A stretch of DNA of 64,000 nucleotides, from NCBI GenBank assembly GCA_035529595.1, contig DATKWK010000017.1:29384-93383 (forward strand). Reading direction: 5' to 3'. This document shows positions 109-29,992 of this stretch, piece after piece. The first letter of the stretch is position 1. Every line of letters begins with the position of its first letter. A program made the translations under genes and the position numbers. Below the pieces are notes generated by a model. That model was given only the letters and a program-made list of their open reading frames with translations, searched no databases and was not told the DNA's origin. The stretch comes from Candidatus Bathyarchaeia archaeon. Lineage in GTDB: Bacteria; Patescibacteriota; Microgenomatia; PFEM01; JAFGMK01.

Positions 109-2505
109 TCATCTACCCGCCCTTTCTTGAATAATTTTTTCGAGTGTCTTAAAGTCTCCTTCATTAACAAGGTGAAATCTCACTTTTCCATCATAAGCTC
201 TTTCTAAAATTGAATCCTCCTTCGTTAAGCCCTGCTTTAATGCCTTTTTCTCTTTTGGTGTTACTTCTTTAAGCTCTGCAAAGACCCAATTTTGGGCAAA
301 ATAGTACCAAACGGCTGTTTTACCGTTAACCTTAATATAGTGGTCTGAGCCAGCTCCCCCTTTGACTACTGCTACTCTGCCATCAACAAAGGTCTCTTTA
401 GTCCAATTAGGTATGCCTCTAACCATCTTTTTTACGAAAGGACTCTTAACCCTCTCGATTATTTCTTTATCCGTTTCAGCGGTACTCTTTTTGACTCCTG
501 TTGCACTAATCATTTTTAGAATAGCTGCTAACCATTCTAAAGCTGCCTCACCTTCTTTTTTAATAAAGGGTGCAATCTCACCTCTACCATGCTTGACGGC
601 ATTGCGGTACTCTTTTAGACTCAGAAATCTTTTTTCCACTTCATATTTTGACCTGAAGATTGATTGAAAAGTGTCCCAGTTCAAAAGAATAATCTTGGAA
701 TAATCCATAATGTCGCAGAAATCTAGCCAATCACGGGGAGAAAGGTCAGTTATTACTTTGGGGGGGTTCTTTTTAAGGTGTTCGCCAACTCTATTTCTAA
801 CAACGCCAACAATATCGCTAGGGATTAATGTTTTCCAATAATTTACATCTTTAGCTATCAGCTTCACGCCAATCAAATCTCTTAGCTGGTTCTCGGTCTT
901 ATCAATTGCCCTGTTAACATCATCGACCACCACCTGACCAATTTTTGACCCTGTAGCAACCGTTATTTCCTCAAGCATTAAAGCGGCCCTGGAAGCCAAA
1001 AAAGAGGTGAAATCACCTTTTTTAATGGAATCGTCATAGCGAATCAAGTGAGTTTTAAGCGTGTCTTCAAAGTCTGGGTTTTCAGAAGCGTAGTCCTCGA
1101 AATATTTACTTGGCTTCTTGTTAGAAATTTCCTTGTTTAATTCGGCTGGTAAGAAGCAAAAATTAGGAAGTGAATGGACCATTACCATCGGGTAATGATT
1201 CTGAATAATGGATTTAGGAAAGATATGGTGTTTCTCTGAGCTGTTGAAATCGGAAAAATAGGCATCACGCAAGGGTAAAAGGGAGTTATTCTTGAAATGT
1301 CTGGGGTTCTTTTTGACAAGCAAACACAAAACACCATTCTTGACGGCTGATTTGCGAGTCATCCTAATTTTCATCAGGGATTCAATGTCTGGATTAAGAG
1401 GATATTTAATAGCTACCTCTTTTCTGTCAGCAATTTTATCCATCAATTTTCTATCCTCGGTCATTAAGGTTAAGGTTGAAGCGGCGTATCTTTCTGAAAA
1501 AGTGGTTTGCCAGAACCATTGTGACAGAAGCTCCACTTGTTTCTGGTCTAGGCTTCTTGCCTTGTTCTTATAAAACAAATAGGCAATCACAGCGATTAAA
1601 CTTCGGTAAGGAAGAAGAAGGGAGTTAACAACGCCAAAATTGCTACAAGCGTAATCTATTGCCAAGCCAAGCGACTCCAGGCAAGTTTTCCAGTAATTTT
1701 TAACATCTTCTACCCGAAGCTGAAGCTGAACAACCCGAGTACAAGAACCCTTAGCAATCAAGGAAAGAGCTTGGATATAAACTTCATTGTGGATTTCGCC
1801 AAACTCTTTGGTTTTGAGTTTCTCGTTTTCTTTTTTAACTGCGACTCTTAAATCAAACTCAGGTGTCCAAGTACTTGCTGAGATTAAATCAAAAAGGTTT
1901 AATTTCTGCCCACCTTGATTGATTCGTTCAAAAATATCACAAACTTCATCCAATTCTTTATCATGAACATCAATGGCAGAAAATGGATAGTTGTTAAATC
2001 GCTGGTAGCATTCATTGAACGCCTTCTTCCGCTCAACGGTTAACCCTTCGTAAACGTCAAACCTGTCATTAGAGAGCAAATCAGAAATAGAAACATATCT
2101 TTGATTATCAGGATTTCGGTCAACAAACACCTTTTCATCCAAATCAAAGCAAATCTTTTTATAATTCCGATTGTAAAGGGTCAATCCCTTGACAGTTACA
2201 TATAGAGAAGTGAGCCTCTGCTGTCCGTCTAAAATAAAAGTTATTTTTTCGTACTTATCAGGCTTGGGAAGATTAAGTTCGGCAATATCTCTGTAGAAGT
2301 CATAATATTTGCGAGGAGCGTCCCAAAAAAAGAAAGAGCCAATCGGATACTCAAGATAAATGCTTTCTAAAAGTTTCATCACTCTAGGCTTGTCCCAAAC
2401 GAACTCTCTTTGAAACTGGGGAATGCGAAGAACACCTTTTTCAATCTCACGAATAATATCCGCCAACTTATAATCACTTTTTATTTTTATCTTTTGTATT
2501 TCCAT
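109..2505 (-). CDS. GmrSD-like type IV restriction-type protein: DUF262 (ParB-like NTPase, DGQQR motif) plus DUF1524 (His-Me finger nuclease, HHIFPKS), with a C-terminal HEPN-like R-x4-H segment
   Basis: Translation carries the ILDGQQRLTSL hallmark of DUF262 in the N-terminal region. A mid-protein SEKHHIFPKSII matches the DUF1524 (D/E)HIxP motif. EYRNAVKHGRGE near residue ~620 matches the HEPN Rx4H signature. The ORF is 798 aa. Confidence 0.8.
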   Translation of the reverse strand: MEIQKIKIKSDYKLADIIREIEKGVLRIPQFQREFVWDKPRVMKLLESIYLEYPIGSFFFWDAPRKYYDFYRDIAELNLPKPDKYEKITFILDGQQRLTSLYVTVKGLTLYNRNYKKICFDLDEKVFVDRNPDNQRYVSISDLLSNDRFDVYEGLTVERKKAFNECYQRFNNYPFSAIDVHDKELDEVCDIFERINQGGQKLNLFDLISASTWTPEFDLRVAVKKENEKLKTKEFGEIHNEVYIQALSLIAKGSCTRVVQLQLRVEDVKNYWKTCLESLGLAIDYACSNFGVVNSLLLPYRSLIAVIAYLFYKNKARSLDQKQVELLSQWFWQTTFSERYAASTLTLMTEDRKLMDKIADRKEVAIKYPLNPDIESLMKIRMTRKSAVKNGVLCLLVKKNPRHFKNNSLLPLRDAYFSDFNSSEKHHIFPKSIIQNHYPMVMVHSLPNFCFLPAELNKEISNKKPSKYFEDYASENPDFEDTLKTHLIRYDDSIKKGDFTSFLASRAALMLEEITVATGSKIGQVVVDDVNRAIDKTENQLRDLIGVKLIAKDVNYWKTLIPSDIVGVVRNRVGEHLKKNPPKVITDLSPRDWLDFCDIMDYSKIILLNWDTFQSIFRSKYEVEKRFLSLKEYRNAVKHGRGEIAPFIKKEGEAALEWLAAILKMISATGVKKSTAETDKEIIERVKSPFVKKMVRGIPNWTKETFVDGRVAVVKGGAGSDHYIKVNGKTAVWYYFAQNWVFAELKEVTPKEKKALKQGLTKEDSILERAYDGKVRFHLVNEGDFKTLEKIIQERAGR

Positions 2506-2570
2506 TTTTATTCTCCAATCATAAACTTCTCGGGTACTCCAAATAAAGACCGATGGTTGATGGTGAAAGT

Positions 2571-5321
2571 TTAATCATTATCACTATTTCTCAATAAATA
2601 TCTTCTTTCTCTTTTAAGAAATGCTTCTTTTCCGCCCTCGAGGACATCACAAATGTGTTCTTTAATACCTTCTTCCTCAATCGCCCCACAGATGATGTTC
2701 TCAGTAACATCATCTTTATCATCATCTTTCAGAACAATCACCAATTCGGCATCGGCAAGAACTACAAGGTTTGGGTCACGAGTACAAATAATCATTTGTC
2801 TTGATTCTTTTTTATCCTTTATAGTAGGAATCAAGCGTTCAATTAAAAATTTCGTATCTATGTGGTCCTCTGGCTGGTCAATAATGAGAGGGCCTCTGCC
2901 TGAACTTAGGATTAACTCTAAAACTGTTCCGCACCTTTCACCAAAAGATAAAGACTCAAGGGGTTTATTTTTGTACTTAATTCTGTTAAGACCTTCAACA
3001 CAAAACTCTTGAAGTCTTAATGACATTTCATCCCTAAGACTGGCTGTTTCTTTTCTACAAAATATCCCATTAAAAAATTTCGACTGCTCGCCCTTGGGTA
3101 ATTTTTCATTCTTTAAACAATCCTTTAATGCCTTAAACAGTTTGTCTCGTGAAGAATACTTGGCAACCAATTGATTCTTAAAGTACTCCACTTGGAATTT
3201 CTCTAATCCTACAATTCTAACTTCTATCTGTTCCTTCCATGCATAATAAGCCTTCGAAAACTGCTCTATTACCCAATTAATCACTTTTTCCATGTCAATC
3301 TCGTAACTAGCACGAATTTCAGAAGAAGAAAACTTTTGATTAAAGGCGTCAACATTCTGCTGGTTAGATTTCTCCCATTTTTGAAAAAGTCTGTTCAACT
3401 TTTTACAACTTTCTTTGTGTTCACCCCTATTTCTTTTACATTGGGTAATTTGTCCCCCCACTTTTTGAAGACTAGAAATAAGTTTTGTCCGCCTTTTTTC
3501 TATCGACTTAACTTCAGCCTCTGAAATATCAATTCCTTGAGAAGCACAATATTGCCTGTAATTCTTTCCAGCTTTAACTAGGTCCTTAGACAATTTCTTG
3601 CACTCTTTAGAGTTAGTAATCTTTTTAAGAACCTGTATTATTTCTTCATCAGTCTTATCAAATCTATCAACTAAATCGGATAATAAATTTAACTTGCCTT
3701 TAAGGCTAGGAATTAATTCGGCAATGTCTTTAGTATCAACAACAAAATATTCTTTTAACTCACTCTTATAGACAGTTAACTTTCCAGACAACCAAGATAG
3801 GCTTTCTTTGAACGAATCAATTTTTTGCTTATTTTGCGAGAGTTCTCGAAAATTATTAAATAGTTTTATAAACTCTTTGGAGTTAAATTTTTTCAGTAAT
3901 AAATCAATCTCTTCTGCCTCCTTTTGAATATCATCTTTCTGTCTTGATAATTGGTAAATTCTCAGATAGTCCTGCCTTTTGTTCTTAATTTCTTTCCTTG
4001 TCTTTTCAATTTCCTCCCATAATTCTTTTAAATTAGCATCTTCAAATTTCTGATAAACTAATGATGAGACTTCATTTTTGTCTCTAGCAATTTTTTCTAC
4101 TTTCCCTTGCGACCAATAGTCAACAGAAATTGCCGTGGCCTTATTATTGGCTTCCTCAATGCCATCTACTTCCTCTTGCAAAGACTTTTTAATCTCATAA
4201 ACATCCTCTCCTGTCTTGACGCTCAATACCACGTTAATACCAGGACACTCTTGCTGAAGCGACTCAATAATCGAAGGCTCTTTGCCTCCAATAACCGTAG
4301 TGGTGTGTTTTCCGTAGACAAAAGAAATAAGTTCAACTAGGGTACTTTTTCCAACACCCCTGGGGCCAATGACTGCAGTTAAGTTAGGGTTAAAAGGAAC
4401 ATGCTCACTTAATTGGCTAAAACAGTATTTATTTTCGGCTTCACTATCCTGTTCGCTCAAAGAAAATTTTGAAATCCGAAAATGAACGTATTGAGGGCAA
4501 TTTTTTCCATACCAAACCCGTTTCTCTGGTTCATAAATAATCTGTTTTAAACCGCTAAAAGTAGGCCTCGCCTTAATCCAACAATATTTTCTTCCAATTT
4601 CGTCAAGAGAATGAGCGTCAGAAGTAACAACGCCCGCCTTTTGCCCGCCCGTTAGCCTTAATACGTCTTCGTGTTTTAAAGACTTTTCTTTTGTCTCAGC
4701 ACTGCTAATTTCGAAGAAATCAACTTCTTTATGAACATTGACCTTTAACTGAGAACCTTTGACTGAGTTTAATGAATCCAGTCCTTTGTGTTTATCATAA
4801 TGTAAATAAATTAAGCCCCCATTATTTTTAATAATTTTATACGCCTCTCGTAAATCAACATACGCATGTTCTAGCCCCTCTTTGAAATACTCGCCATCGG
4901 TCTTTCCTTCCTTTAGCCTCGACTTCCCAAGTTTTATTAGAGCACTTCTACTTATTCCTTCGCCTTTTTTCTCACAAAGAGGAAGTTGGTTTAAAACATT
5001 TTCCTTGATTTCACTGATGTCTATGTCTTCTGGAAACAAAGCCACTGCATGAATCGGAGAATCACCCTTATCTATTCGAAATTCAAATCCAGGCAATATA
5101 GTAATTTCCTCATCGACTGCAAGAATCCTAATTGCATCAACAAGCTCAACCGACCAATGGTCCGTAATAGCAGCTAATTGTATTTTTTCTTGTTTTATTT
5201 TCTCTACTATCTGCCTTGGGGTTATTGCTTTATTTTTATAGTCATAAGAGGCAGGAGTATGAATCTGTAAATCGCACTTTGTCCAAGTGGAACCAATCGT
5301 TCCAGGCTGAGAATCACTCAT
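2571..5321 (-). CDS. PHP-domain (polymerase/histidinol-phosphatase-like) plus ABC/SMC-like ATPase fusion protein; candidate single-gene antiphage system (PPL-like)
   Basis: N-terminus CDLQIHTPASYDY...ITDHWS resembles PHP metal-binding His motifs. Walker A is GPRGVGKST at about residue 320. A long coiled-coil middle is followed by an LSFGER signature-like segment and Walker B/D-loop LIIDQPEDHID near the C-terminus. 916 aa. Confidence 0.75.
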   Translation of the reverse strand: MSDSQPGTIGSTWTKCDLQIHTPASYDYKNKAITPRQIVEKIKQEKIQLAAITDHWSVELVDAIRILAVDEEITILPGFEFRIDKGDSPIHAVALFPEDIDISEIKENVLNQLPLCEKKGEGISRSALIKLGKSRLKEGKTDGEYFKEGLEHAYVDLREAYKIIKNNGGLIYLHYDKHKGLDSLNSVKGSQLKVNVHKEVDFFEISSAETKEKSLKHEDVLRLTGGQKAGVVTSDAHSLDEIGRKYCWIKARPTFSGLKQIIYEPEKRVWYGKNCPQYVHFRISKFSLSEQDSEAENKYCFSQLSEHVPFNPNLTAVIGPRGVGKSTLVELISFVYGKHTTTVIGGKEPSIIESLQQECPGINVVLSVKTGEDVYEIKKSLQEEVDGIEEANNKATAISVDYWSQGKVEKIARDKNEVSSLVYQKFEDANLKELWEEIEKTRKEIKNKRQDYLRIYQLSRQKDDIQKEAEEIDLLLKKFNSKEFIKLFNNFRELSQNKQKIDSFKESLSWLSGKLTVYKSELKEYFVVDTKDIAELIPSLKGKLNLLSDLVDRFDKTDEEIIQVLKKITNSKECKKLSKDLVKAGKNYRQYCASQGIDISEAEVKSIEKRRTKLISSLQKVGGQITQCKRNRGEHKESCKKLNRLFQKWEKSNQQNVDAFNQKFSSSEIRASYEIDMEKVINWVIEQFSKAYYAWKEQIEVRIVGLEKFQVEYFKNQLVAKYSSRDKLFKALKDCLKNEKLPKGEQSKFFNGIFCRKETASLRDEMSLRLQEFCVEGLNRIKYKNKPLESLSFGERCGTVLELILSSGRGPLIIDQPEDHIDTKFLIERLIPTIKDKKESRQMIICTRDPNLVVLADAELVIVLKDDDKDDVTENIICGAIEEEGIKEHICDVLEGGKEAFLKRERRYLLRNSDND

Positions 5322-6475
5322 GAAACTAATTCTCCTTTCATTGCCTTATTAAGCGTGCTTTCAAAAAGTTCATTTAGTAAAGTCTCTTTCATAAAAAGAC
5401 TACTAATGTAATCTAAAAGTTGTTCTGCTTTCACTATTATTTTTTTCTGTTTATCTAACAAAGGTAAGGTTATTTCAATCTCCTTTATCCTATTAGCGTT
5501 GAACTGGGGCTGCCCCGAACCAGTTACCAACTTCCTAGCCTGTTTCCAGTATTTTTCAGTTCTGGTAAACAACCAAATAAACAAGGGTATTGCTAAATCA
5601 GGATTAAATTTAACTCTTATCAGGAATGAAGCAAACACTGATGGTTTATCATAGTCGAATAATAAAAATTTTCCATAAGTTGCACCCGTACGAGCCACAA
5701 GCAAATCGTCATTGCTAAGAACATAGGATTTAGCTGTTCTCTCATTGACTTGCACAAATCTTTTATCATGGTTTCTTAGTTTCCCCGACTCATTAATATC
5801 GGTGATTCTTATTAATCTATAGTTACCTTTGTTCTTGCCTTCAGCTGTTAATCCATACTGAAATTCTGCAATATCACCAAACTTACTAAATTTTGCACTA
5901 TTATTTTGGACGAGCTGGCCAGTTATGAAAGAATCAAATAATTCTTCTGCCTTCTCAATTTCTTGCTGGTTTAGTTCTTGGAGTTTTCGAATCGCATCCA
6001 GTCGCTCAACAATTTTGTGTTGAATCTCGAGAGAAGGAAAAGAAATTTTAATCTTTTTTAGGGCCGTAGTGCTTAATTCTTTAAAAGTGGTTCCATAAGA
6101 TACCCTTTCTAGTCTTCTTTTATTCGCCAACAGCCAATAGGCAAGAAACCATGAGCCTAACTCCTTTTTGGGTGTAATTCCTTTTATGCCTTGGTTGTAG
6201 CCCGAAGCTGTTGAAGTAATCGCTACATTTCCAATTGTTGCTCTAGTCGATAAAAGAATACAATTCTTGTCGACTATTTTGGTATATTTTTTAGCTTCCT
6301 CGCTAATTTGTCTTTCACTGTCTTCTAAAACAGAAACTGTTCCTGAAGTTATTTCGGAAGGAGTAAACCATGGGACGTCGCCATTGAAATATTGAGGCTG
6401 ACTAGTTGGTGGAGTACCTCCGCCGTTGACCTCAACTAAATTGTCCAATTTTTTTGTTTGCCAATTATTTTTCAT
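5318..6475 (-). CDS. hsdS: Type I restriction-modification specificity subunit HsdS (two target-recognition domains)
   Basis: 385 aa with the N-terminal pattern KLDNLVEVNGGGTPPTSQPQYFNGDVPWFTPSEI typical of HsdS TRD1, and a second repeat-like half. It lies in an operon with hsdM/hsdR. The stop overlaps the next gene's start (5318..5321). Confidence 0.8.
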   Translation of the reverse strand: MKNNWQTKKLDNLVEVNGGGTPPTSQPQYFNGDVPWFTPSEITSGTVSVLEDSERQISEEAKKYTKIVDKNCILLSTRATIGNVAITSTASGYNQGIKGITPKKELGSWFLAYWLLANKRRLERVSYGTTFKELSTTALKKIKISFPSLEIQHKIVERLDAIRKLQELNQQEIEKAEELFDSFITGQLVQNNSAKFSKFGDIAEFQYGLTAEGKNKGNYRLIRITDINESGKLRNHDKRFVQVNERTAKSYVLSNDDLLVARTGATYGKFLLFDYDKPSVFASFLIRVKFNPDLAIPLFIWLFTRTEKYWKQARKLVTGSGQPQFNANRIKEIEITLPLLDKQKKIIVKAEQLLDYISSLFMKETLLNELFESTLNKAMKGELVS

Positions 6476-7176
6476 TTCAGTAATCTATATACCTCCGCTA
6501 ATAAAACATCTAAATCATTAGAGAAATCTATTTGGCTATGGCCTGGAAGTACCTCTTTTTTTCTTACTTGTGTATGCAAGAAACTGTCAGCAATCTTTCT
6601 AGAGGAATTTTCCAGGTGCTTCATTTGTTCCCTAAAGCTCTTTGTCCCTCGATAATTATTAGCAATTTCAGAAAAAGACCTAGTATTAAAGATTGGAGGA
6701 ATGTGGTCAAGAATAGACCGCACTACCATGGCCACAGAGTAATAACAATTATTCTCGTAGGCTGTATTCAGCTCCTCACAAAGTCTAATAAGCCTAATTA
6801 AGTCGAAAACATCACTTTTAACACTCTTTAACTCTTTTATCCTAGACTCACTCACATAGGATACGGTTCGTGTTTTGAGAACTTTTTTAGGTAGAACTAA
6901 AAAAGAGTGTAATTTCTTCTTTAAATCTCTCTTAACCGCTAAGGCATCAATTGACCGTCGAATAATATCAATTTTTTCTTCTTCGTTAAGCTCAGAATCT
7001 GCAACTGTCATCACCCAACTATAAGTCAATGCCGACCTTGCAGATGTTATTGCTTCGTTTGGATAATCTTTACACTTTAAATCAGTCAAAGAGTAAAAAA
7101 TACGATTTATCTCATTAATTGTGCTATCGTACTTTATGCCTTCACCAAATTGCGTAGCAAGAAATTTGTAATTCAT
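6472..7176 (-). CDS. Hypothetical helical protein with an R-x4-H (HEPN-like) motif, inserted inside the Type I R-M operon
   Basis: 234-aa ORF whose start overlaps the hsdS start region (6472..6475). It contains VVRSILDHIPP (R-x4-H). There is no TM segment and no other recognisable motif. Confidence 0.5.
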   Translation of the reverse strand: MNYKFLATQFGEGIKYDSTINEINRIFYSLTDLKCKDYPNEAITSARSALTYSWVMTVADSELNEEEKIDIIRRSIDALAVKRDLKKKLHSFLVLPKKVLKTRTVSYVSESRIKELKSVKSDVFDLIRLIRLCEELNTAYENNCYYSVAMVVRSILDHIPPIFNTRSFSEIANNYRGTKSFREQMKHLENSSRKIADSFLHTQVRKKEVLPGHSQIDFSNDLDVLLAEVYRLLK

Positions 7177-7185
7177 ATTAAGGCC

Positions 7186-7896
7186 TTATCTATCCTTTTT
7201 AATAAATTCAAGAAATTTTTCCCCAAATTCAGTCAAAGGTCCGAAAAATGTTCCACCATATCTACCATTTTTGACGGAAATTAAACCATAATTCCCCAGT
7301 CTTGCTAATTTGTCTTCTAAATCAATTTCATCTTCTCTTTTTTGGAGATAACCTGCCTCTTTAACATCTCTAATACTAATGCCCCTGCTTCCATCGACAT
7401 TAATCTTAGCTTCAGGATTCTCTTTTTTTTGTCTCTTAAGGGTGGCCCGAAGAATTCCGTCATATTTTTCATTAAGCCAAGCTAACCTATGTAGCTCATC
7501 AAAAGTAATCGAATTAATCGTCAGAATAATCTTGGAGTGATAATCAAAGGAGGGATAAATATCTTTATGAAGTTGGGAAATATAATTATAGTAGAGTCGT
7601 CTTTTTCTTCTGGATTCTTCCTGCAAAACATTCAGCAAAATTTTATGGAGAATGTCTTTAGCTTTATCGTCTCTTTGGATTAGCTCTAATAACTTTTTGG
7701 CTCCAACTTCATTTTTAACTTCCTTAATCCTGTCACCTCTCCATTTATCAACTAGAGACCAAATCCCTGATGCTGCTGCCGTACCAATGCCAACAAAGGG
7801 AGAAAATACAGAAATTACCGCCCCTGCAACAGGAAGACCTAATTCCTTAACAACATCCTTGGCTTTATCTTTTTTATTCTTGTTATTCTTGCTCAT
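7186..7896 (-). CDS. Hypothetical membrane protein with a Gly-zipper-like single TM segment near the N-terminus, inserted inside the Type I R-M operon
   Basis: 236 aa with a Lys-rich N-terminus followed by LGLPVAGAVISVFSPFVGIGTAAASGIWSLV (GxxxG-rich hydrophobic segment). Its stop overlaps the hsdM start (7893..7896). Confidence 0.5.
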   Translation of the reverse strand: MSKNNKNKKDKAKDVVKELGLPVAGAVISVFSPFVGIGTAAASGIWSLVDKWRGDRIKEVKNEVGAKKLLELIQRDDKAKDILHKILLNVLQEESRRKRRLYYNYISQLHKDIYPSFDYHSKIILTINSITFDELHRLAWLNEKYDGILRATLKRQKKENPEAKINVDGSRGISIRDVKEAGYLQKREDEIDLEDKLARLGNYGLISVKNGRYGGTFFGPLTEFGEKFLEFIKKDR

Positions 7897-9410
7897 CTGA
7901 TAAATCCCTTAACTTTCTTTAATTGTTGCTGAACCTTTTTATTAATTTCCTCAACCTCTTTGAATATCTCTTTTGGTTCTCGATATTCAGTCTCATCATC
8001 TTCAATGGGTTTGTAAGCTGAAGCTGAAAGAATGTAGTCATTTTCATCAATCTGTTTTCTGGTAGCGTACCAACTCCTGTCTGATTCGGGTTTGTCTTTC
8101 CATTTTTCAATTAAATCAGGCAAATCATTTTTATCTGGAGTTGGCCTCCTTTGAGTAGATAGTTGGAAACCGTCAAAACGCACTTCATAAAACCAAACTT
8201 TTTCCGTTTTCTTGCCGTCGTTATTGAAAAAAAGAACACTTGTTTTAACGCCTGAATAAGGCTGGAAAACACCGCCTGGCAAAGAAACTACAGCTACAAG
8301 GTTTCTTTTGTCCATTAGGTAACGCCTAATTTCTTTTGAAGCCCTATTTCTATTAAAAAGAATACCTTCGTTAACAATCACCCCAGCCCTACCACTTTTT
8401 CTTAAAGCATCAATCATTAAGCCTAAAAAGAGAGTGGTTGTATCGTTGGCCTGAACTGGGAGATATTTTCTGATTCTTTCTTTATTTACACTGCCTGCAA
8501 AAGGAGGATTAGTAACGACAACGTCAAATTCTCTGTCTTCCCATTCATCAGGACTGCCAGCAATAGAATCCCTTCTTAACACTTGCGATTTCTCAAGACC
8601 ATGCAAGATAAGATTCATAGTGGCGATTCTGACCATGGCCGCATCAACATCGAAACCATAAAAAGTACCAGTTTGTAAAAATTGCCATTGAGAAGGTGTT
8701 AACTTATCACCTGGTCCTTTTTTGACTTTTTGTCCACTGCCATTTCCTAGTTCTTCAATATTCTTCTTGTCAGAATTGTTTAGTTTTATCCATTCATAGA
8801 CTCCTAAAAGGAAGCCTGCAGTGCCACAGGCAGGGTCTAGCAATGTTTCACCAATCTGGGGGTTAACCAGCTGAACAACGGTTCTGATAATATGCCTTGG
8901 TGTTCTGAATTGGCCTGCTTTGCCTGAAGTAGCTATTTGGTTTAAAAGGTATTCATAAAGGTCACCCTTAACATCAGCATCTAGTTCAATAAAAGAAATC
9001 TCACGCAGCTTGTCAATCACATCTCTTAAAACAACTCCGTCTGGAATCTGAAATCGGGCTCCTGAAAAGAAACTTCTAACCGTTTCATCAGTGCCAGGCA
9101 AATTGGCCATAAAGGGGAAAACTTCATCTCGGACAAATTTATACATTTCGGTATTATCAGGAATATGAGTCCATTGGCTCCAACGGTACTTTTCATTCTC
9201 TTTATCAAAGATTGATTTATAGCCATTCTTACTGCCCATCAGCTTTGTTTCTTTCACTTTTTCGTTGTCCCATTCCTCAAGCATTTTTAGGAAAAAGAGA
9301 TACGATATTTGTTCAATGTAAGTAATGGGGTTTGTTAACCCTGCGGCCCAAAGTTTATTGCAAATTTGGTCGATGACAGATTTAAGTTCCTGTTTAGTTG
9401 TTCTACTCAT
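7893..9410 (-). CDS. hsdM: Type I restriction-modification N6-adenine DNA methyltransferase subunit HsdM
   Basis: 505 aa with the catalytic VVTNPPFAGS (NPPF) motif and the SAM-binding LLDPACGTAGFL motif. Its start/stop overlaps hsdR (9407..9410). Confidence 0.9.
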   Translation of the reverse strand: MSRTTKQELKSVIDQICNKLWAAGLTNPITYIEQISYLFFLKMLEEWDNEKVKETKLMGSKNGYKSIFDKENEKYRWSQWTHIPDNTEMYKFVRDEVFPFMANLPGTDETVRSFFSGARFQIPDGVVLRDVIDKLREISFIELDADVKGDLYEYLLNQIATSGKAGQFRTPRHIIRTVVQLVNPQIGETLLDPACGTAGFLLGVYEWIKLNNSDKKNIEELGNGSGQKVKKGPGDKLTPSQWQFLQTGTFYGFDVDAAMVRIATMNLILHGLEKSQVLRRDSIAGSPDEWEDREFDVVVTNPPFAGSVNKERIRKYLPVQANDTTTLFLGLMIDALRKSGRAGVIVNEGILFNRNRASKEIRRYLMDKRNLVAVVSLPGGVFQPYSGVKTSVLFFNNDGKKTEKVWFYEVRFDGFQLSTQRRPTPDKNDLPDLIEKWKDKPESDRSWYATRKQIDENDYILSASAYKPIEDDETEYREPKEIFKEVEEINKKVQQQLKKVKGFIR

Positions 9411-11629
9411 TGGAATACTCCTTGTTGCAAATCATCAACTACCTGCTTTAAGCCTTCATCTCCAAACACTTTTAAGGCGTACTGTAAACCGCCGTATTGA
9501 GAAATTGGTGGCCTATTGAAGTCAGCAATATCAGCCTTGCTCCCTGCAAGATATTGATTCTTCAGCATTCTTAAAACTCTGGCCTGCTCTGGAGCAAAAT
9601 TCTTTTGAATAATCCAAGCATCGAAGGCCTTGCTGACTCTTTCTTCTTTAGTTGGGAATTTGTGCATTCCAAGGGAAGATTTGATGAAATCTAATAAGTT
9701 GGCAGTTGGTTGGCCATAGGCATCTCTTAAATTGGCTTCATTGAAAAAGTATTCTGGGTGATTTAAAAGTTGGGCTAATTCTTGAAGTTCTTCATCTGTT
9801 ATCTCCTTGCCTTGTTTAACCTTGGCCACAATCTCATTTGAATCAACAAGAGTGCTCACTTCTTCAGCAAACTTATCTTTATACTCTCGAGCATCAACTT
9901 TTTCTCCTTCTGGCCCAAACTCAATAAATTTACGCTCCATCCATTCATCTGGAGCCTGTCCTTTGGGTACAGTTACAAACTCTCTTTTGGGCATCTTCAG
10001 TTCTTCTTCTTGTAGTAAATCTTCTTCCACTTTCTCCTCTTTTAGCTCCCTGGTAGCTGATTCCTTTTGTTCAAATGGGTCATAACCTTCATCGTTAAAA
10101 TATTTAGCATTACCAACGAAGTCATAAATCATAAAAGAAGTTTTACCGATTTCTGGGCAGAGTCGTGAACCCCTACCTCGCATTTGTTGGTAAAAAATTG
10201 GTGAGAGGGTTGGCCGACACATCATCAAATTTTCAATAGCTGGGTAGTCGAAACCTGTGTCTAACATGGCCACCGAAACCGCAATCACGGGCAAAGGTTC
10301 CTTTTTAAAACGTTTAATAGCTCTTTGTGGGTCGAAGGTGTCGGTGGTTATCATCTCAGCATACTTTCCCTTATATTCTGGATAAGCCTGGTTGAAGAAT
10401 CTGGTTAGTTGAGCGGCGTGTTTCTTGGTGACAGCAAATACAATTGTTTTCCTGGGATGGTCGCTTCCTTTCTTTTCTTCTTGCTCTTTGAATTCTTGGA
10501 CAAAGAGCATATTTCTGTCTTCAACTGTAATTACTCTTTCTAAATCTTGCGGCTGATAATCTTCGCCTTGCCATTTAATTCCTTCTAGAGAAATCTTCGA
10601 ACGGGCATGATAAACCTTGTAGCCAGCTAAATAGCCATCATTTATCGCTTGTCTAATGCCGTAAATAAAAGTGGGCTTACCTCGTCTGGTTGATGGGTTC
10701 CAACAGTCAAAAAATTTATAAGTGTTGCGGTCAATAAAATTGGCTGGAGTAGCGGTTAAACCAACATGAATAGCATCAAAATGAAGAAGAAGCGGACGAT
10801 ACATGCTGTAAATTGAACGATGACACTCATCAGTCACTACTAAATCAAAATAGCCACTAGTAAAAGAGTCAACTTGTGATTGAATCGTTGGTAAAGTACC
10901 AATCACTATCTGGCCTTCTTTGCTTCTTTTACCGCCGTATAAAACAATTGAGGGGTATTCAGAAAGATAATCATCAAAAGTTTCCTTGGCTTGGTTGGCA
11001 AGCTCGATTCGGTCGACTAGAAATAAAACTCGCTCAACAAGACCTGCCTGAAATAATCGCTTCATTTGCATGGCAATCACTAGCGTTTTCCCTGTCCCTG
11101 TAGCCATTTCTATTAACATCCGTCGTTTATTTTCTTCTATTCCTTTATCCATTGTTCTTAATGAATCTTTTTGGTAAGGCCTGACAGTGATTTCTTTGCC
11201 TCTAAAAAAGAATTTATCGGGAATGGGAATAGCGGAAAGCGGCTTGCGATATTTTCTTAAAGTGGAAATTCTTTCTAAATCATATCTGGAAAAAAAGGAG
11301 TCAACCAGACGAGCATCTGCCTGAGCGTAATCCCAAAAATAGGTGTCTTCGCCATTAGAAAGGAAAATAAAAGGAGCTTGAAGTTCCTTAGCATAATTCT
11401 CTGCCTGTTCTTTGGCAGAATACGGGTCCTTGTTGAATCTTTTTGTTTCTACGACCGCTAACGACCTTCCTCGAGCGTCCAAAAGAAGATAATCGGCCCT
11501 ACCGTCTTTAGTAGCTTCTTCGGTAGTAACCTGAGTTTTATCTTCAATATCCCAGCCTGCCTCTTTAAGCAAGCGGTCAACAATGATTCTGGAATCCGTC
11601 TCTTTCGAGGCAGATTTAGCATTAGCCAT
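9407..11629 (-). CDS. hsdR: Type I restriction enzyme R subunit HsdR (N-terminal PD-(D/E)xK nuclease plus SF2 helicase/translocase)
   Basis: The N-terminus ADYLLLDARGRSLAVVETKR is a PD-D/ExK-like segment. Helicase motif I is MATGTGKT and motif II is VVTDECHRS. 740 aa, which is on the short side for HsdR. Confidence 0.85.
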   Translation of the reverse strand: MANAKSASKETDSRIIVDRLLKEAGWDIEDKTQVTTEEATKDGRADYLLLDARGRSLAVVETKRFNKDPYSAKEQAENYAKELQAPFIFLSNGEDTYFWDYAQADARLVDSFFSRYDLERISTLRKYRKPLSAIPIPDKFFFRGKEITVRPYQKDSLRTMDKGIEENKRRMLIEMATGTGKTLVIAMQMKRLFQAGLVERVLFLVDRIELANQAKETFDDYLSEYPSIVLYGGKRSKEGQIVIGTLPTIQSQVDSFTSGYFDLVVTDECHRSIYSMYRPLLLHFDAIHVGLTATPANFIDRNTYKFFDCWNPSTRRGKPTFIYGIRQAINDGYLAGYKVYHARSKISLEGIKWQGEDYQPQDLERVITVEDRNMLFVQEFKEQEEKKGSDHPRKTIVFAVTKKHAAQLTRFFNQAYPEYKGKYAEMITTDTFDPQRAIKRFKKEPLPVIAVSVAMLDTGFDYPAIENLMMCRPTLSPIFYQQMRGRGSRLCPEIGKTSFMIYDFVGNAKYFNDEGYDPFEQKESATRELKEEKVEEDLLQEEELKMPKREFVTVPKGQAPDEWMERKFIEFGPEGEKVDAREYKDKFAEEVSTLVDSNEIVAKVKQGKEITDEELQELAQLLNHPEYFFNEANLRDAYGQPTANLLDFIKSSLGMHKFPTKEERVSKAFDAWIIQKNFAPEQARVLRMLKNQYLAGSKADIADFNRPPISQYGGLQYALKVFGDEGLKQVVDDLQQGVFQ

Positions 11630-11643
11630 TCTTTTATTTCTTT

Positions 11644-11838
11644 TTATTTCTTTTGTCTTTCAATATAACTCTCGATGTCTTCGGGCCTGTATCTTCTATC
11701 ACCGACGCCACGCCTGGAGCCAATTCTGACAGCCTTTAAACGGTCTTCGTTATCCAATCGCCTTAGAGTTGCGGGACTAACATTTAAAATGTCAGCTGCT
11801 TGTTTTAAGGTCAACAATTTTCTAATTTTTTTGGTCAT
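11644..11838 (-). CDS. Small HTH DNA-binding protein (excisionase/AlpA-like family); possible regulator or recombination directionality factor
   Basis: 64 aa with LTLKQAADILNVSPATLRRL, typical of excisionase-family HTH. It sits 14 nt upstream of hsdR. Confidence 0.6.
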   Translation of the reverse strand: MTKKIRKLLTLKQAADILNVSPATLRRLDNEDRLKAVRIGSRRGVGDRRYRPEDIESYIERQKK

Positions 11839-28498: not shown

Positions 28499-29992
28499 TT
28501 ATTGCCGTCTAAGTTTGAACCTAGCTTTAAAATGCCTTAAAGGCAAATCGCGCCCATAGACGACATCAACGGGTGGGATTTTATCTCTTTCCTTGTATAA
28601 ATTCTTGACCGCTTCAACCACCGAATCCAAATCTTGTTTCTCATAACGGAGCCGGGGAACCGCAAACCTGACAAAGTTAACTTCAGGAAATGTCTCTTTT
28701 CCGGTTTCTTGATCATACGAACCAAAAGCAAAATAGCCCAGTTCACAAGCTCGATGGCCATAAGCCGCTAACAGAACGGCAGTAAAGGCAATCCCACCAA
28801 AATCATCAGGCTTCATTTTGGTGCCGGCAAAAAATCTGTTTACATCCAAATAAACTGCGTGGCCGCCAATCGGGGTTAGCACCGGTACACCCTGTTGCCG
28901 CATACCTTCGCCGAACTCTCGAATCTGATTGATCCGATAATCAAGATATTTTTCCCCAACGACCGTCCTTAATCCGACTGATAAAGTCATAATATCCCGT
29001 CCTGAAAGCCCGCCGTAGGTGGGGTGGCCTTCTTTAATAATTTGATAATTCATCAAGGCATCGGGAAGCCGTGGATATTTTTTAACAAACAATCCACCGT
29101 CCTTCAGAAAGATCCCTCCGCCCATATTGGCCAACCCGTCTTTTTTAAAACTTATCGTAAAACCATCAACCTGGGAAAACATCTCCTGAACAATTTCACT
29201 GATCTTCTTATTTTTATAACCCCGTTCAAATTTCTTAACAAACCAGGCATTCTCAGCAAAACGGCAGGCATCAAAAAACAAAGGAATTCCGAATCTATGC
29301 GAGAGCTCGGAAACCGTTTTGATATTTTCCATTGAAACCGGCTGGCCACCGCCCTTATTATTGGTAATCGTCAAATAAACGAGTGGTATTTTATGGCGCA
29401 TCTTTTTCAAAAGCCTTCCAAATTTGACTAGGTTCATATTACCCTTAAAATGCGAACTGGAATTCTGGTCTAATAACTCGGAAGAAAAAAGACTTAGGGC
29501 TTGTATCTTGTTAGTTTCAATATTGGCCTCGGTCGTATCAAAATGCCCATTACTGGGAATGGCCAGGCCTGTCCCAAGTCTGCCTAAGGCAGTGAAAAGA
29601 GCATCTTCGCTCGGCCTGCCTTGATGAAAAATAAAAGCGTTCGGCCGATTGGCCGTGGGGTGGTTAAAAAACATCTCGCCAAAGGTTTCTTTGATCTGTT
29701 TCATCAGTAAAAAATAACCTTTGTTTGAGCCATAAGCCTCGTCGCCTAAATGAAGAGCTGCCCATTGCTCATTCGTCATTGTGGTTGTGCCCGAATCTGA
29801 TAAAAAATCACCACCGGTAATCATCTCCGAAGGAAAAAAGAAGACATTCGAACCAACCGCTTCAAGCATTTTTGCCCGGTCCTTAGCCGAGTAAATACCT
29901 TTAAATTCCACCGAATGATTAAAGTACGGTCTGGCTTTGACCGTCAGTTTTTCTTCAGGTAAGAAAGTATCAATCACGGTAGTCAGCTGCAT
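28499..29992 (-). CDS. Beta-eliminating lyase family protein (tryptophanase/tyrosine phenol-lyase-like, PLP-dependent)
   Basis: DFLSDSGTTTMTNEQWAALHLGDEAYGSNKGY resembles the tryptophanase/TPL N-terminal region. SFKKDGLANMGG resembles the PLP-Lys region. 497 aa. Confidence 0.7.
   Translation of the reverse strand: MQLTTVIDTFLPEEKLTVKARPYFNHSVEFKGIYSAKDRAKMLEAVGSNVFFFPSEMITGGDFLSDSGTTTMTNEQWAALHLGDEAYGSNKGYFLLMKQIKETFGEMFFNHPTANRPNAFIFHQGRPSEDALFTALGRLGTGLAIPSNGHFDTTEANIETNKIQALSLFSSELLDQNSSSHFKGNMNLVKFGRLLKKMRHKIPLVYLTITNNKGGGQPVSMENIKTVSELSHRFGIPLFFDACRFAENAWFVKKFERGYKNKKISEIVQEMFSQVDGFTISFKKDGLANMGGGIFLKDGGLFVKKYPRLPDALMNYQIIKEGHPTYGGLSGRDIMTLSVGLRTVVGEKYLDYRINQIREFGEGMRQQGVPVLTPIGGHAVYLDVNRFFAGTKMKPDDFGGIAFTAVLLAAYGHRACELGYFAFGSYDQETGKETFPEVNFVRFAVPRLRYEKQDLDSVVEAVKNLYKERDKIPPVDVVYGRDLPLRHFKARFKLRRQ

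Follow-up and report, generated by a model that had tools for sequence, protein, structure and literature searches.

HEPN-type and other abortive-infection genes are established passengers of restriction-modification (R-M) operons. The anticodon nucleases PrrC and RloC are HEPN proteins embedded in Type I R-M loci, and genes of the DUF4145 family (PF13643), which has been placed in the HEPN superfamily, have been recorded as 'in operon with R-M' (PMC3710099). RNase activity of DUF4145 has been shown in RAZR/PD-T7-4, a zinc finger joined to a DUF4145 RNase with the catalytic residues R146 and H154 in an R-x7-H arrangement (PMC13017515). A further comparison is offered by Abi-alpha (EF2833; Abi_alpha/DUF4393), an experimentally shown single-gene abortive-infection protein that acts through premature lysis of infected cells (PMC6356687). 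The locus described here lies in a stretch of 64,000 nucleotides (the window; contig DATKWK010000017.1, assembly GCA_035529595.1, forward-strand positions 29,384 to 93,383), and is a Type I R-M operon on the minus strand in which two unannotated genes, X and Y, lie between hsdM and hsdS. We consider it somewhat more probable than its converse that this junction is a cargo slot occupied by an Abi-alpha-like gene (X) and a gene for a DUF4145-type HEPN RNase (Y), which would be co-expressed abortive-infection cassettes.

The gene order on the minus strand is hsdR-hsdM-X-Y-hsdS. HsdR, HsdM and HsdS are all encoded together, as identified by Pfam and PADLOC, and the operon is thus a Type I R-M system. 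The overlapping junctions of the original prediction were read directly from the sequence: the stop of hsdM and the start of X share an ATGA at 7893-7896, and the stop of Y and the start of hsdS share an ATGA at 6472-6475. X and Y are separated by 9 nucleotides, with AAGG upstream of the Y start. Further 4-nucleotide overlaps follow from the coordinates of the open reading frames (ORFs) of hsdR and hsdM (9407-9410) and of hsdS and the Ppl-like gene (5318-5321). A scan of the operon for internal promoters or terminators that would set X and Y apart from it found no signal above chance. Translational coupling ties both genes to the rest of the operon, and they are therefore made together with the R-M enzyme. 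Homologs of each are under clear constraint, so both are real genes. The packing is tight throughout 109-11838 of the minus strand, from an ORF of the HTH_17 type to a gene of the GmrSD_N type, and the Ppl-like and GmrSD-like genes downstream in this operon give X and Y a defence-island setting. Library scans agreed with the view of X and Y as unannotated inserts in such an island, and neither protein matched a known non-defence family in Pfam, NCBIfam, PHROGs or PADLOC.

Orthologous operons differ in what they carry at this junction (related loci are cited as L001 and so on, and related proteins as P0001 and so on). In L001-L003 and L013, whose HsdR and HsdM are 81% and 82% identical to those of the window, the order is hsdR-hsdM-Y-hsdS, without X. 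The DNA homology of L001 and L013 to the window ends at 7900 and restarts at 7181; X is precisely absent there, because the homology breaks exactly around it. The converse arrangement, hsdM-X-hsdS without Y, is found in L095 (HsdM 73% identical). In L102, hsdM is followed by a 245-amino acid multi-transmembrane gene, X (71%), a 225-amino acid gene, a 110-amino acid gene and hsdS. Four different cargo sets thus occupy one hsdM-hsdS junction, which is therefore a variable cargo slot. When all contexts are counted, Y occurs without X in L001-3, L013 and L113-117, and X occurs without Y in L004, L007, L095, L097, L098 and L100-102. X and Y are separate mobile passengers and form no conserved pair.

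The three other cargo genes of L102 are unannotated. The 245-amino acid protein (L102:128-865) is strongly hydrophobic in its C-terminal part, the 225-amino acid protein (L102:1608-2285) carries the motif RNVYMH, and the 110-amino acid protein (L102:2318-2650) has weak similarity to part of the C-terminus of the GmrSD-like protein of the window.

X and Y had been proposed to form one two-gene abortive-infection or toxin module wired to HsdM and HsdS, as PrrC is to EcoprrI. The adjacency and coupling of the two genes, and the conservation of the R-x4-H motif in Y, are what such a module would show. However, each gene is found without the other at the same junction, and full-length Y orthologs with the same N-terminal domain are found after a Type III mod/res pair and next to an integrase (L113-115; the arrangement is listed in 42 blocks of the contig index, with 23 contigs read). 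Other full-length orthologs (L116, L117) have no R-M system around them and follow an uncharacterised gene of 193 or 223 amino acids that overlaps them. Y orthologs are approximately 50-60% identical to each other in any context, compared with 81-82% for the flanking HsdR and HsdM, and hsd genes were present within 7 kb at only about 5 of the best 80 Y-domain genome loci. The relatives of X are mostly solitary and outside R-M, being found among toxin-antitoxin genes, among housekeeping genes or directly behind a Ppl homolog. Both X and Y thus also occur outside Type I systems, and neither depends on such a setting. The separate occurrences have already largely refuted the wired module, and we regard it as improbable.

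The comparison with PrrC and RloC is no more than an analogy. HEPN inserts in R-M loci are a known theme. Like them, Y is an accessory gene with a HEPN-type motif inside a Type I operon, and a back-up that acts if restriction fails is plausible in both cases. PrrC and RloC combine an N-terminal ABC-type ATPase with a canonical HEPN motif, whereas P-loop and AAA matches were absent from X and Y in family scans and Y has no significant HEPN match. Y is not limited to Type I loci, and binding of the R-M complex by Y would follow from the analogy only.

A role of X, Y or both in regulating or modulating the R-M system itself, for example through control of its genes, a delay of its establishment or a guard against anti-restriction, would suit the PadR/MarR-like winged helix at the end of X and the translational coupling to hsdM and hsdS. 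It appears highly improbable: both families are mostly found without R-M genes, and in this operon, as in its ortholog, hsdR is already preceded by a dedicated gene of the HTH_17 type. This 64-amino acid ORF is approximately 75% identical to L001:2062-2253, which occupies the same position in the orthologous operon and is labelled PF12728 HTH_17 (HTH_17/MerR-type) in its source, and it is a possible operon regulator.

The AlphaFold2 model of Y (predicted local distance difference test score, pLDDT, 87.6) was all-helical, as had been predicted, and showed two domains. Among the homologs listed, coverage of approximately 100% of Y, and with it the N-terminal domain, is limited to the top 24 (P0001-P0024). 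The remaining homologs have only the C-terminal ~130 residues in common; their N-termini are unrelated, zinc ribbons and DUF2321 being among them. Y has 406 homologs in the protein database. In a scan of one genome per species, the C-terminal domain was present in at least 221 species genomes at 45-60% identity, in Patescibacteria, Chloroflexota, Pseudomonadota, Bacteroidota, Cyanobacteria, Acidobacteriota, Verrucomicrobiota and other phyla. It was also present on 15 plasmids, always annotated as 'hypothetical protein'. The domain had no Pfam, NCBIfam, PADLOC or PHROG annotation in the libraries scanned, and may well define a new family of wide distribution.

The domain is highly conserved. 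In the R-x4-H motif RSILDH, at residues 153-158, R153 was kept in all 199 aligned homologs and D157 and H158 in 198 each, which bears out the conservation that a functional motif had been expected to show. R/K193, D/N197 and H201 are conserved throughout the homologs, and the full set of invariant or nearly invariant residues in the 199 domains comprises R112, E135, R153, D157, H158, R193, D197, H201, R205, E208, Q215, D223 and E228. A branch on Streptomyces plasmids, approximately 30% identical to the Y domain, retains only N137, R153, D157, H158, P160, P161, R/K193, D197 and H201, with E135 in most members. On plasmids, Y-domain genes lie near a zeta toxin, transposases, and an AAA ATPase and helicase pair. 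On the Methylobacter plasmid NZ_CP091425 (L126:6221-9782), the Y-domain gene lies between a DUF3644 gene and this last pair; the pair, annotated as 'AAA family ATPase' and 'ATP-dependent helicase', resembles a Gabija-type system, and the region is possibly a plasmid defence island.

Among the described families, the C-terminal domain of Y most resembles DUF4145. Both are all-helical domains of approximately 110-130 amino acids with a collinear series of conserved residues (E, R-x3-[E/D] and R-x3-[N/D]-x3-H), both stand as a conserved C-terminal effector behind variable N-terminal modules, which in some Y-family members are zinc ribbons as in RAZR, and both occur sporadically in R-M operons (PMC3710099 for DUF4145). 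A DUF4145 alignment of 9 sequences was invariant at E21, R39 (with E/D at +4), G84, N85 and H89, and had an Arg at H-8 in 6 of the 9. The hhalign alignment with Y, over 88-115 columns, gave the collinear pairs E135/E21, R153/R39, D157/E43, R193/R81, D197/N85 and H201/H89, with an E-to-R spacing of 18 in both families. The signature E...R-x3-[ED]...R-x2-G-[ND]-x3-H is found collinearly in Y at the motif level only, and its Gly is present in the Streptomyces branch, which reads FRNSGDDALH against TRLLGNNSAH in DUF4145 (pattern R..GN...H). The R193-x7-H201 spacing of Y is that of R146 and H154 in RAZR.

This alignment changes the reading of RSILDH, which the original prediction had taken for the HEPN motif. 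Situated where helix 2 of the domain ends, RSILDH aligns with the helix-2 R-x3-E of DUF4145; on this reading it would be that element and not the canonical catalytic motif. R193-x7-H201 lies at the expected catalytic position, with a spacing outside the canonical HEPN R-x4-6-H, and R193 and H201 are proposed as better catalytic candidates. Y also differs from DUF4145 in having Asp for the Asn of the G-N dipeptide, an extra invariant His158, a PP motif after helix 2 and many more invariant residues. Y had no Pfam DUF4145 match, and Foldseek found no fold match for it.

In a Roizmanbacteria contig (L018), a gene for a zinc ribbon plus DUF4145 (944-1606) is located between hsdS and a Y-domain gene (1610-2281); a recognised HEPN gene and a Y domain there adjoin each other after an R-M gene.

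The statistics of the comparison of Y with DUF4145 were weak. The hhalign P value was 0.012-0.018 with a probability of approximately 3%, and the score of 19.6 compared with 11.5 ± 2.3 for column shuffles, of which 1 in 100 equalled the real score. The combined signature was rare, being present in 4 of 1384 background ORFs and in 7 of 20000 shuffles. Several results weigh against a HEPN assignment and against a defence role. The signature expression was written after both families had been seen. The DUF4145 profile scored no better in its real order than after circular permutation. Most of the score is therefore owed to the helix-1/helix-2 hairpin, and statistical support for full-domain homology is not claimed. 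No HEPN family was matched significantly by Y in sequence, profile or fold searches: Y and 28 homologs had no Pfam HEPN match, profile comparisons by hhalign reached probabilities of 2.6-8.5%, and DUF4145 (gathering score 23.1 bits) was not among the best 25 of the 46 families found for these sequences at E ≤1, in a setting in which the same Pfam model scored 63 bits on L018. Foldseek searches of the confident Y model against PDB and BFVD returned nothing significant (HepT, probability 0.1). The relationship also leaves R112, D125, R205, E208, Q215, D223 and E228, all invariant in Y, unexplained, and the invariant H158 beside D157 has no DUF4145 counterpart. With regard to defence, the domain was found in 0 of 50,697 phage records, and most Y-domain loci had no recognisable defence neighbours. 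No dominant neighbour family emerged as a conserved partner from BLAST and phmmer clustering or from a Pfam census of 150 neighbours, which were heterogeneous.

These negative results could also indicate that the domain is not a HEPN RNase, but a new enzyme or binding fold built around R153, D157 and H158, or a non-catalytic adaptor or regulator. The approximately 20 invariant polar residues, H158 among them, exceed the DUF4145 core. This explanation seems rather unlikely to us, since the most divergent branch holds on to exactly the residues shared with DUF4145 while losing the rest, and the alignment is collinear with an identical R-x7-H spacing. The earlier description of Y as HEPN-like thus stays plausible at the motif level and was not matched by significant sequence, profile or fold similarity. 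On balance, we consider the chances about even that the C-terminal domain of Y is a far-diverged DUF4145-like HEPN domain.

Two other families were considered for Y and set aside. DUF5677 appeared in direct scans at E 0.099, but comparison of the Y profile by hhalign with an actual DUF5677 protein (L007) yielded no match. Among PDB sequences, the Y profile matched best a HEPN domain, 9wx2 'Dandelion-hepn' (E 0.035); with a family profile of 11 sequences the match fell to a probability of 5-8.5%, and homology was not established. The Dandelion domain resembles Y in its helix-1/helix-2 hairpin (E..x..Y..G.Y.S), and in being a conserved terminal domain fused to another region, encoded by a single gene on a prophage. 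It differs in its catalytic motif R[HN]LSAH (R-x4-H), which follows an insert of approximately 35 amino acids, and in having no R, D or H at the RSILDH position. The 9wx2 chain derives from ORF1 in the Z-region of phage P2-EC30 (AJ512676; L093:364-1779, 471 amino acids): all 61 residues compared were identical to the N-terminus of this ORF, whose family has the invariant motif R[HN]LSAHP. Homologs of this ORF1 were present on 160 plasmids, 99 of them from Enterococcus, and all were annotated as hypothetical.

Gene X has the Lys-rich N-terminus (MSKNNKNKKDKAKD) and the small-residue hydrophobic segment that had been described for it. The segment at residues 19-48 reached a maximum 19-residue Kyte-Doolittle mean of 1.93 and contains seven [GAS]xxx[GAS] motifs. 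Of 55 X-family members, 50 have their hydrophobicity peak near the N-terminus, and P22, P33 and G44 are invariant among close homologs. The segment would be a membrane anchor, with the winged helix on the cytoplasmic side. Since basic residues flank it on both sides and a conserved Pro lies at its centre, it may be monotopic or a re-entrant hairpin. The AlphaFold2 model, made with 55 relatives, had a pLDDT of 87 and a predicted template modelling score of 0.79, with low confidence in the N-terminal 40 residues. It showed a helical domain at approximately residues 39-160 and a helix/beta-hairpin unit at residues 175-232. Foldseek of this C-terminus against PDB returned the ORC2 winged helix, CodY and MarR (E 0.02-0.2, probability up to 0.99), and the family profile matched PadR among PDB sequences (E 0.01).

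X itself had no match in direct scans of Pfam, NCBIfam, PHROGs and PADLOC, and its family is small. There were 8 close homologs in 5.8 billion clusters, and an exhaustive HMMER scan of 1.8 billion proteins gave 64 cluster representatives. A profile search with the 55 relatives in a large protein database gained almost nothing, and scans for loci with X relatives turned up 3 in metagenomes and none in viruses. Among the 55 relatives, 6 matched the Pfam Abi_alpha family (PF14337), with a best E of 6.6e-5. The matches seen in detail were collinear: residues 57-187 of P0144 aligned to positions 3-128 of the hidden Markov model (HMM), and residues 113-234 of P0151 to 65-194, P0144 being the better of the two at 16.1 bits. 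The family consensus was likewise collinear, 55-205 with HMM 3-145, at 12.5 bits. A point against this assignment is that X has no Abi_alpha match of its own and that the matches of its relatives all fall under the 29-bit gathering score. X is most likely a rare, distant relative of Abi-alpha, judging from these profile comparisons.

Abi-alpha is, like X, a single small protein (272 amino acids) with no enzymatic motif, and both are scattered over mobile or defence contexts; the relatives of X have weak collinear matches to the model. Abi-alpha is mostly found on Gram-positive prophages, whereas X lies in the R-M operon of a candidate-phyla bacterium. PMC6356687 names no transmembrane segment, and X has a predicted N-terminal hydrophobic anchor. 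The abortive-infection phenotype is known for EF2833 only.

The contexts of the X relatives raise two alternatives to an Abi-alpha-like factor that acts singly. X could be a sensor or regulator, a membrane winged-helix protein, that works with a variable adjacent HEPN-type effector, Y being its partner here. Directly downstream of X relatives lie two small proteins whose motifs are archetypal for HEPN, one of 174 amino acids with RNGSAH (L007) and the 225-amino acid RNVYMH protein of L102, and a 405-amino acid protein with YRSGFFH lies upstream in L004. The pattern RN...H was present in 2.5% of 476 background genes and in 2 of approximately 8 neighbours (rough binomial p ~0.015), which is suggestive, and one X-family member had a weak HEPN_RiboL-PSP match. 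Against this, L095 has X alone between hsdM and hsdS, and the neighbours in L097, L098, L100 and L101 are a peptidase, a toxin-antitoxin pair, a transmembrane protein or a polymerase. Searches of Pfam and PDB found no relatives for the L007 and L102 proteins, neither of which is related to Y, and the sample is small, at 9 contexts. We consider this partnership unlikely. The other alternative is that X works with the Ppl-like PHP-ATPase encoded two genes downstream, and not with Y or the R-M system. In L007/L096, the X relative starts 4 nucleotides after a Ppl homolog (29-36% identity in the PHP and ATPase ends), and in the window the Ppl-like gene is in the same operon. No Ppl homolog was found near X in L004, L098, L100 and L101, or in L095 and L102, whose contigs are short, and PADLOC treats Ppl as a single-gene system (a single Ppl model match); this pairing is quite improbable.

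For the cargo-slot reading that we favour, the following mechanism can be proposed. The hsdM-hsdS junction of this Patescibacteria-type Type I lineage would take up small, independently mobile accessory genes, and single-gene cassettes inserted there would become translationally coupled to the R-M genes and be expressed with them. X may be a membrane-associated abortive-infection factor, by analogy with Abi-alpha. Y may be a sensor-plus-RNase protein of the RAZR type, with R193 and H201 as the catalytic pair, R153-x3-D157 as the helix-2 motif, and the variable N-terminal domains of its family as sensor or adaptor modules. Both would probably provide a second, abortive-infection line of defence once restriction fails. 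Of this picture, the layout of the genes, their coupling, the separate occurrence of X and Y, the changing content of the junction and the spread and conservation of the Y domain are observed; the defence role, the HEPN/RNase chemistry, the membrane anchor and any functional tie to the R-M complex are inferences. A wider reading joins three elements: Y as a new, broad effector family, X as part of a new two-gene abortive-infection system with variable HEPN-type partners, and the junction as a dedicated landing pad for such cassettes in candidate-phyla bacteria. In its first element, the Y domain would be a HEPN RNase that has diverged far, or else a new catalytic fold, joined to swappable N-terminal sensors; it would be a single-gene immune family like RAZR that current annotation misses completely. 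We hold this combination only tentatively, and think it less probable than not.

The architecture itself is unsurprising, as accessory abortive-infection or HEPN genes are an established theme in R-M operons. What is new is the unannotated 130-amino acid domain of Y, which is found in hundreds of species and many phyla with a compact invariant Arg/Asp/His set. If Y is an RNase effector, a sizeable new family would be added to the defence and toxin repertoire. R193, H201, R153, D157 and H158 are pinpointed as the residues to mutate in Y. The four cargo sets are a tractable example of R-M operons gathering second-line defences in candidate-phyla bacteria.

Table 1. Genes, domains and motifs of the operon, in window coordinates.
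Feature	Position	Strand	Evidence or remark
HTH_17-type small protein, 64 aa	11644..11838	-	just upstream of hsdR
hsdR, EcoEI-type Type I restriction subunit	9407..11629	-	ResIII 2e-37, EcoEI_R_C 4.5e-32, PADLOC REase_I 1e-85
hsdM	7893..9410	-	N6_Mtase 3e-59, HsdM_N 4e-18, PADLOC MTase_I 1e-152
Gene X, 236 aa	7186..7896	-	ORF; Abi_alpha-like, predicted N-terminal hydrophobic anchor and C-terminal winged helix
X hydrophobic Gly/Ala/Ser/Pro-rich segment, aa 19-48	7753..7842	-	basic residues on both flanks
X winged helix-turn-helix, aa 175-232	7201..7374	-	Foldseek and profile matches
Gene Y, 234 aa	6472..7176	-	ORF; two helical domains predicted
Y N-terminal helical domain, aa 1-95	6892..7176	-	only in closest orthologs
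Y C-terminal conserved domain, aa 105-234	6475..6864	-	unannotated; proposed divergent DUF4145-like HEPN
RSILDH (R153...D157 H158), aa 153-158	6703..6720	-	R-x4-H motif
RKIADSFLH (R193-x3-D197-x3-H201)	6574..6600	-	proposed catalytic motif
hsdS, two target-recognition domains	5318..6475	-	Methylase_S 1e-50, two matched stretches
Ppl-like PHP + SMC-type ATPase defence gene	2571..5321	-	PADLOC Ppl 4.9e-50; weak PHP and SMC_N Pfam matches
GmrSD_N-type protein, 798 aa	109..2505	-	GmrSD_N 2e-31; PADLOC HEC-05, PDC-M55C, PDC-M34B

Downstream, the Ppl-like gene overlaps hsdS by 4 nucleotides, so that a second defence system follows the R-M operon without a break. The C-terminal region of the GmrSD_N-type protein contains a canonical HEPN-like motif, YRNAVKH (LKEYRNAVKHGRGE), and the protein also matches the PADLOC PDC-M34B and RTasHEPN models. 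The protein would thus combine a restriction domain of Type IV-like character with a fused HEPN-like module.

In NCBI, the exact Y and X proteins (P0001 and P0121) come from a metagenome-assembled genome named 'Candidatus Bathyarchaeia archaeon'. The closest operon (HsdR and HsdM 81-82% identical) is from a Patescibacteria genome, and the named homologs of Y and X are from Shapirobacteria, Roizmanbacteria and Buchananbacteria. The Bathyarchaeia label of the bin may be wrong, or the island may have been transferred.

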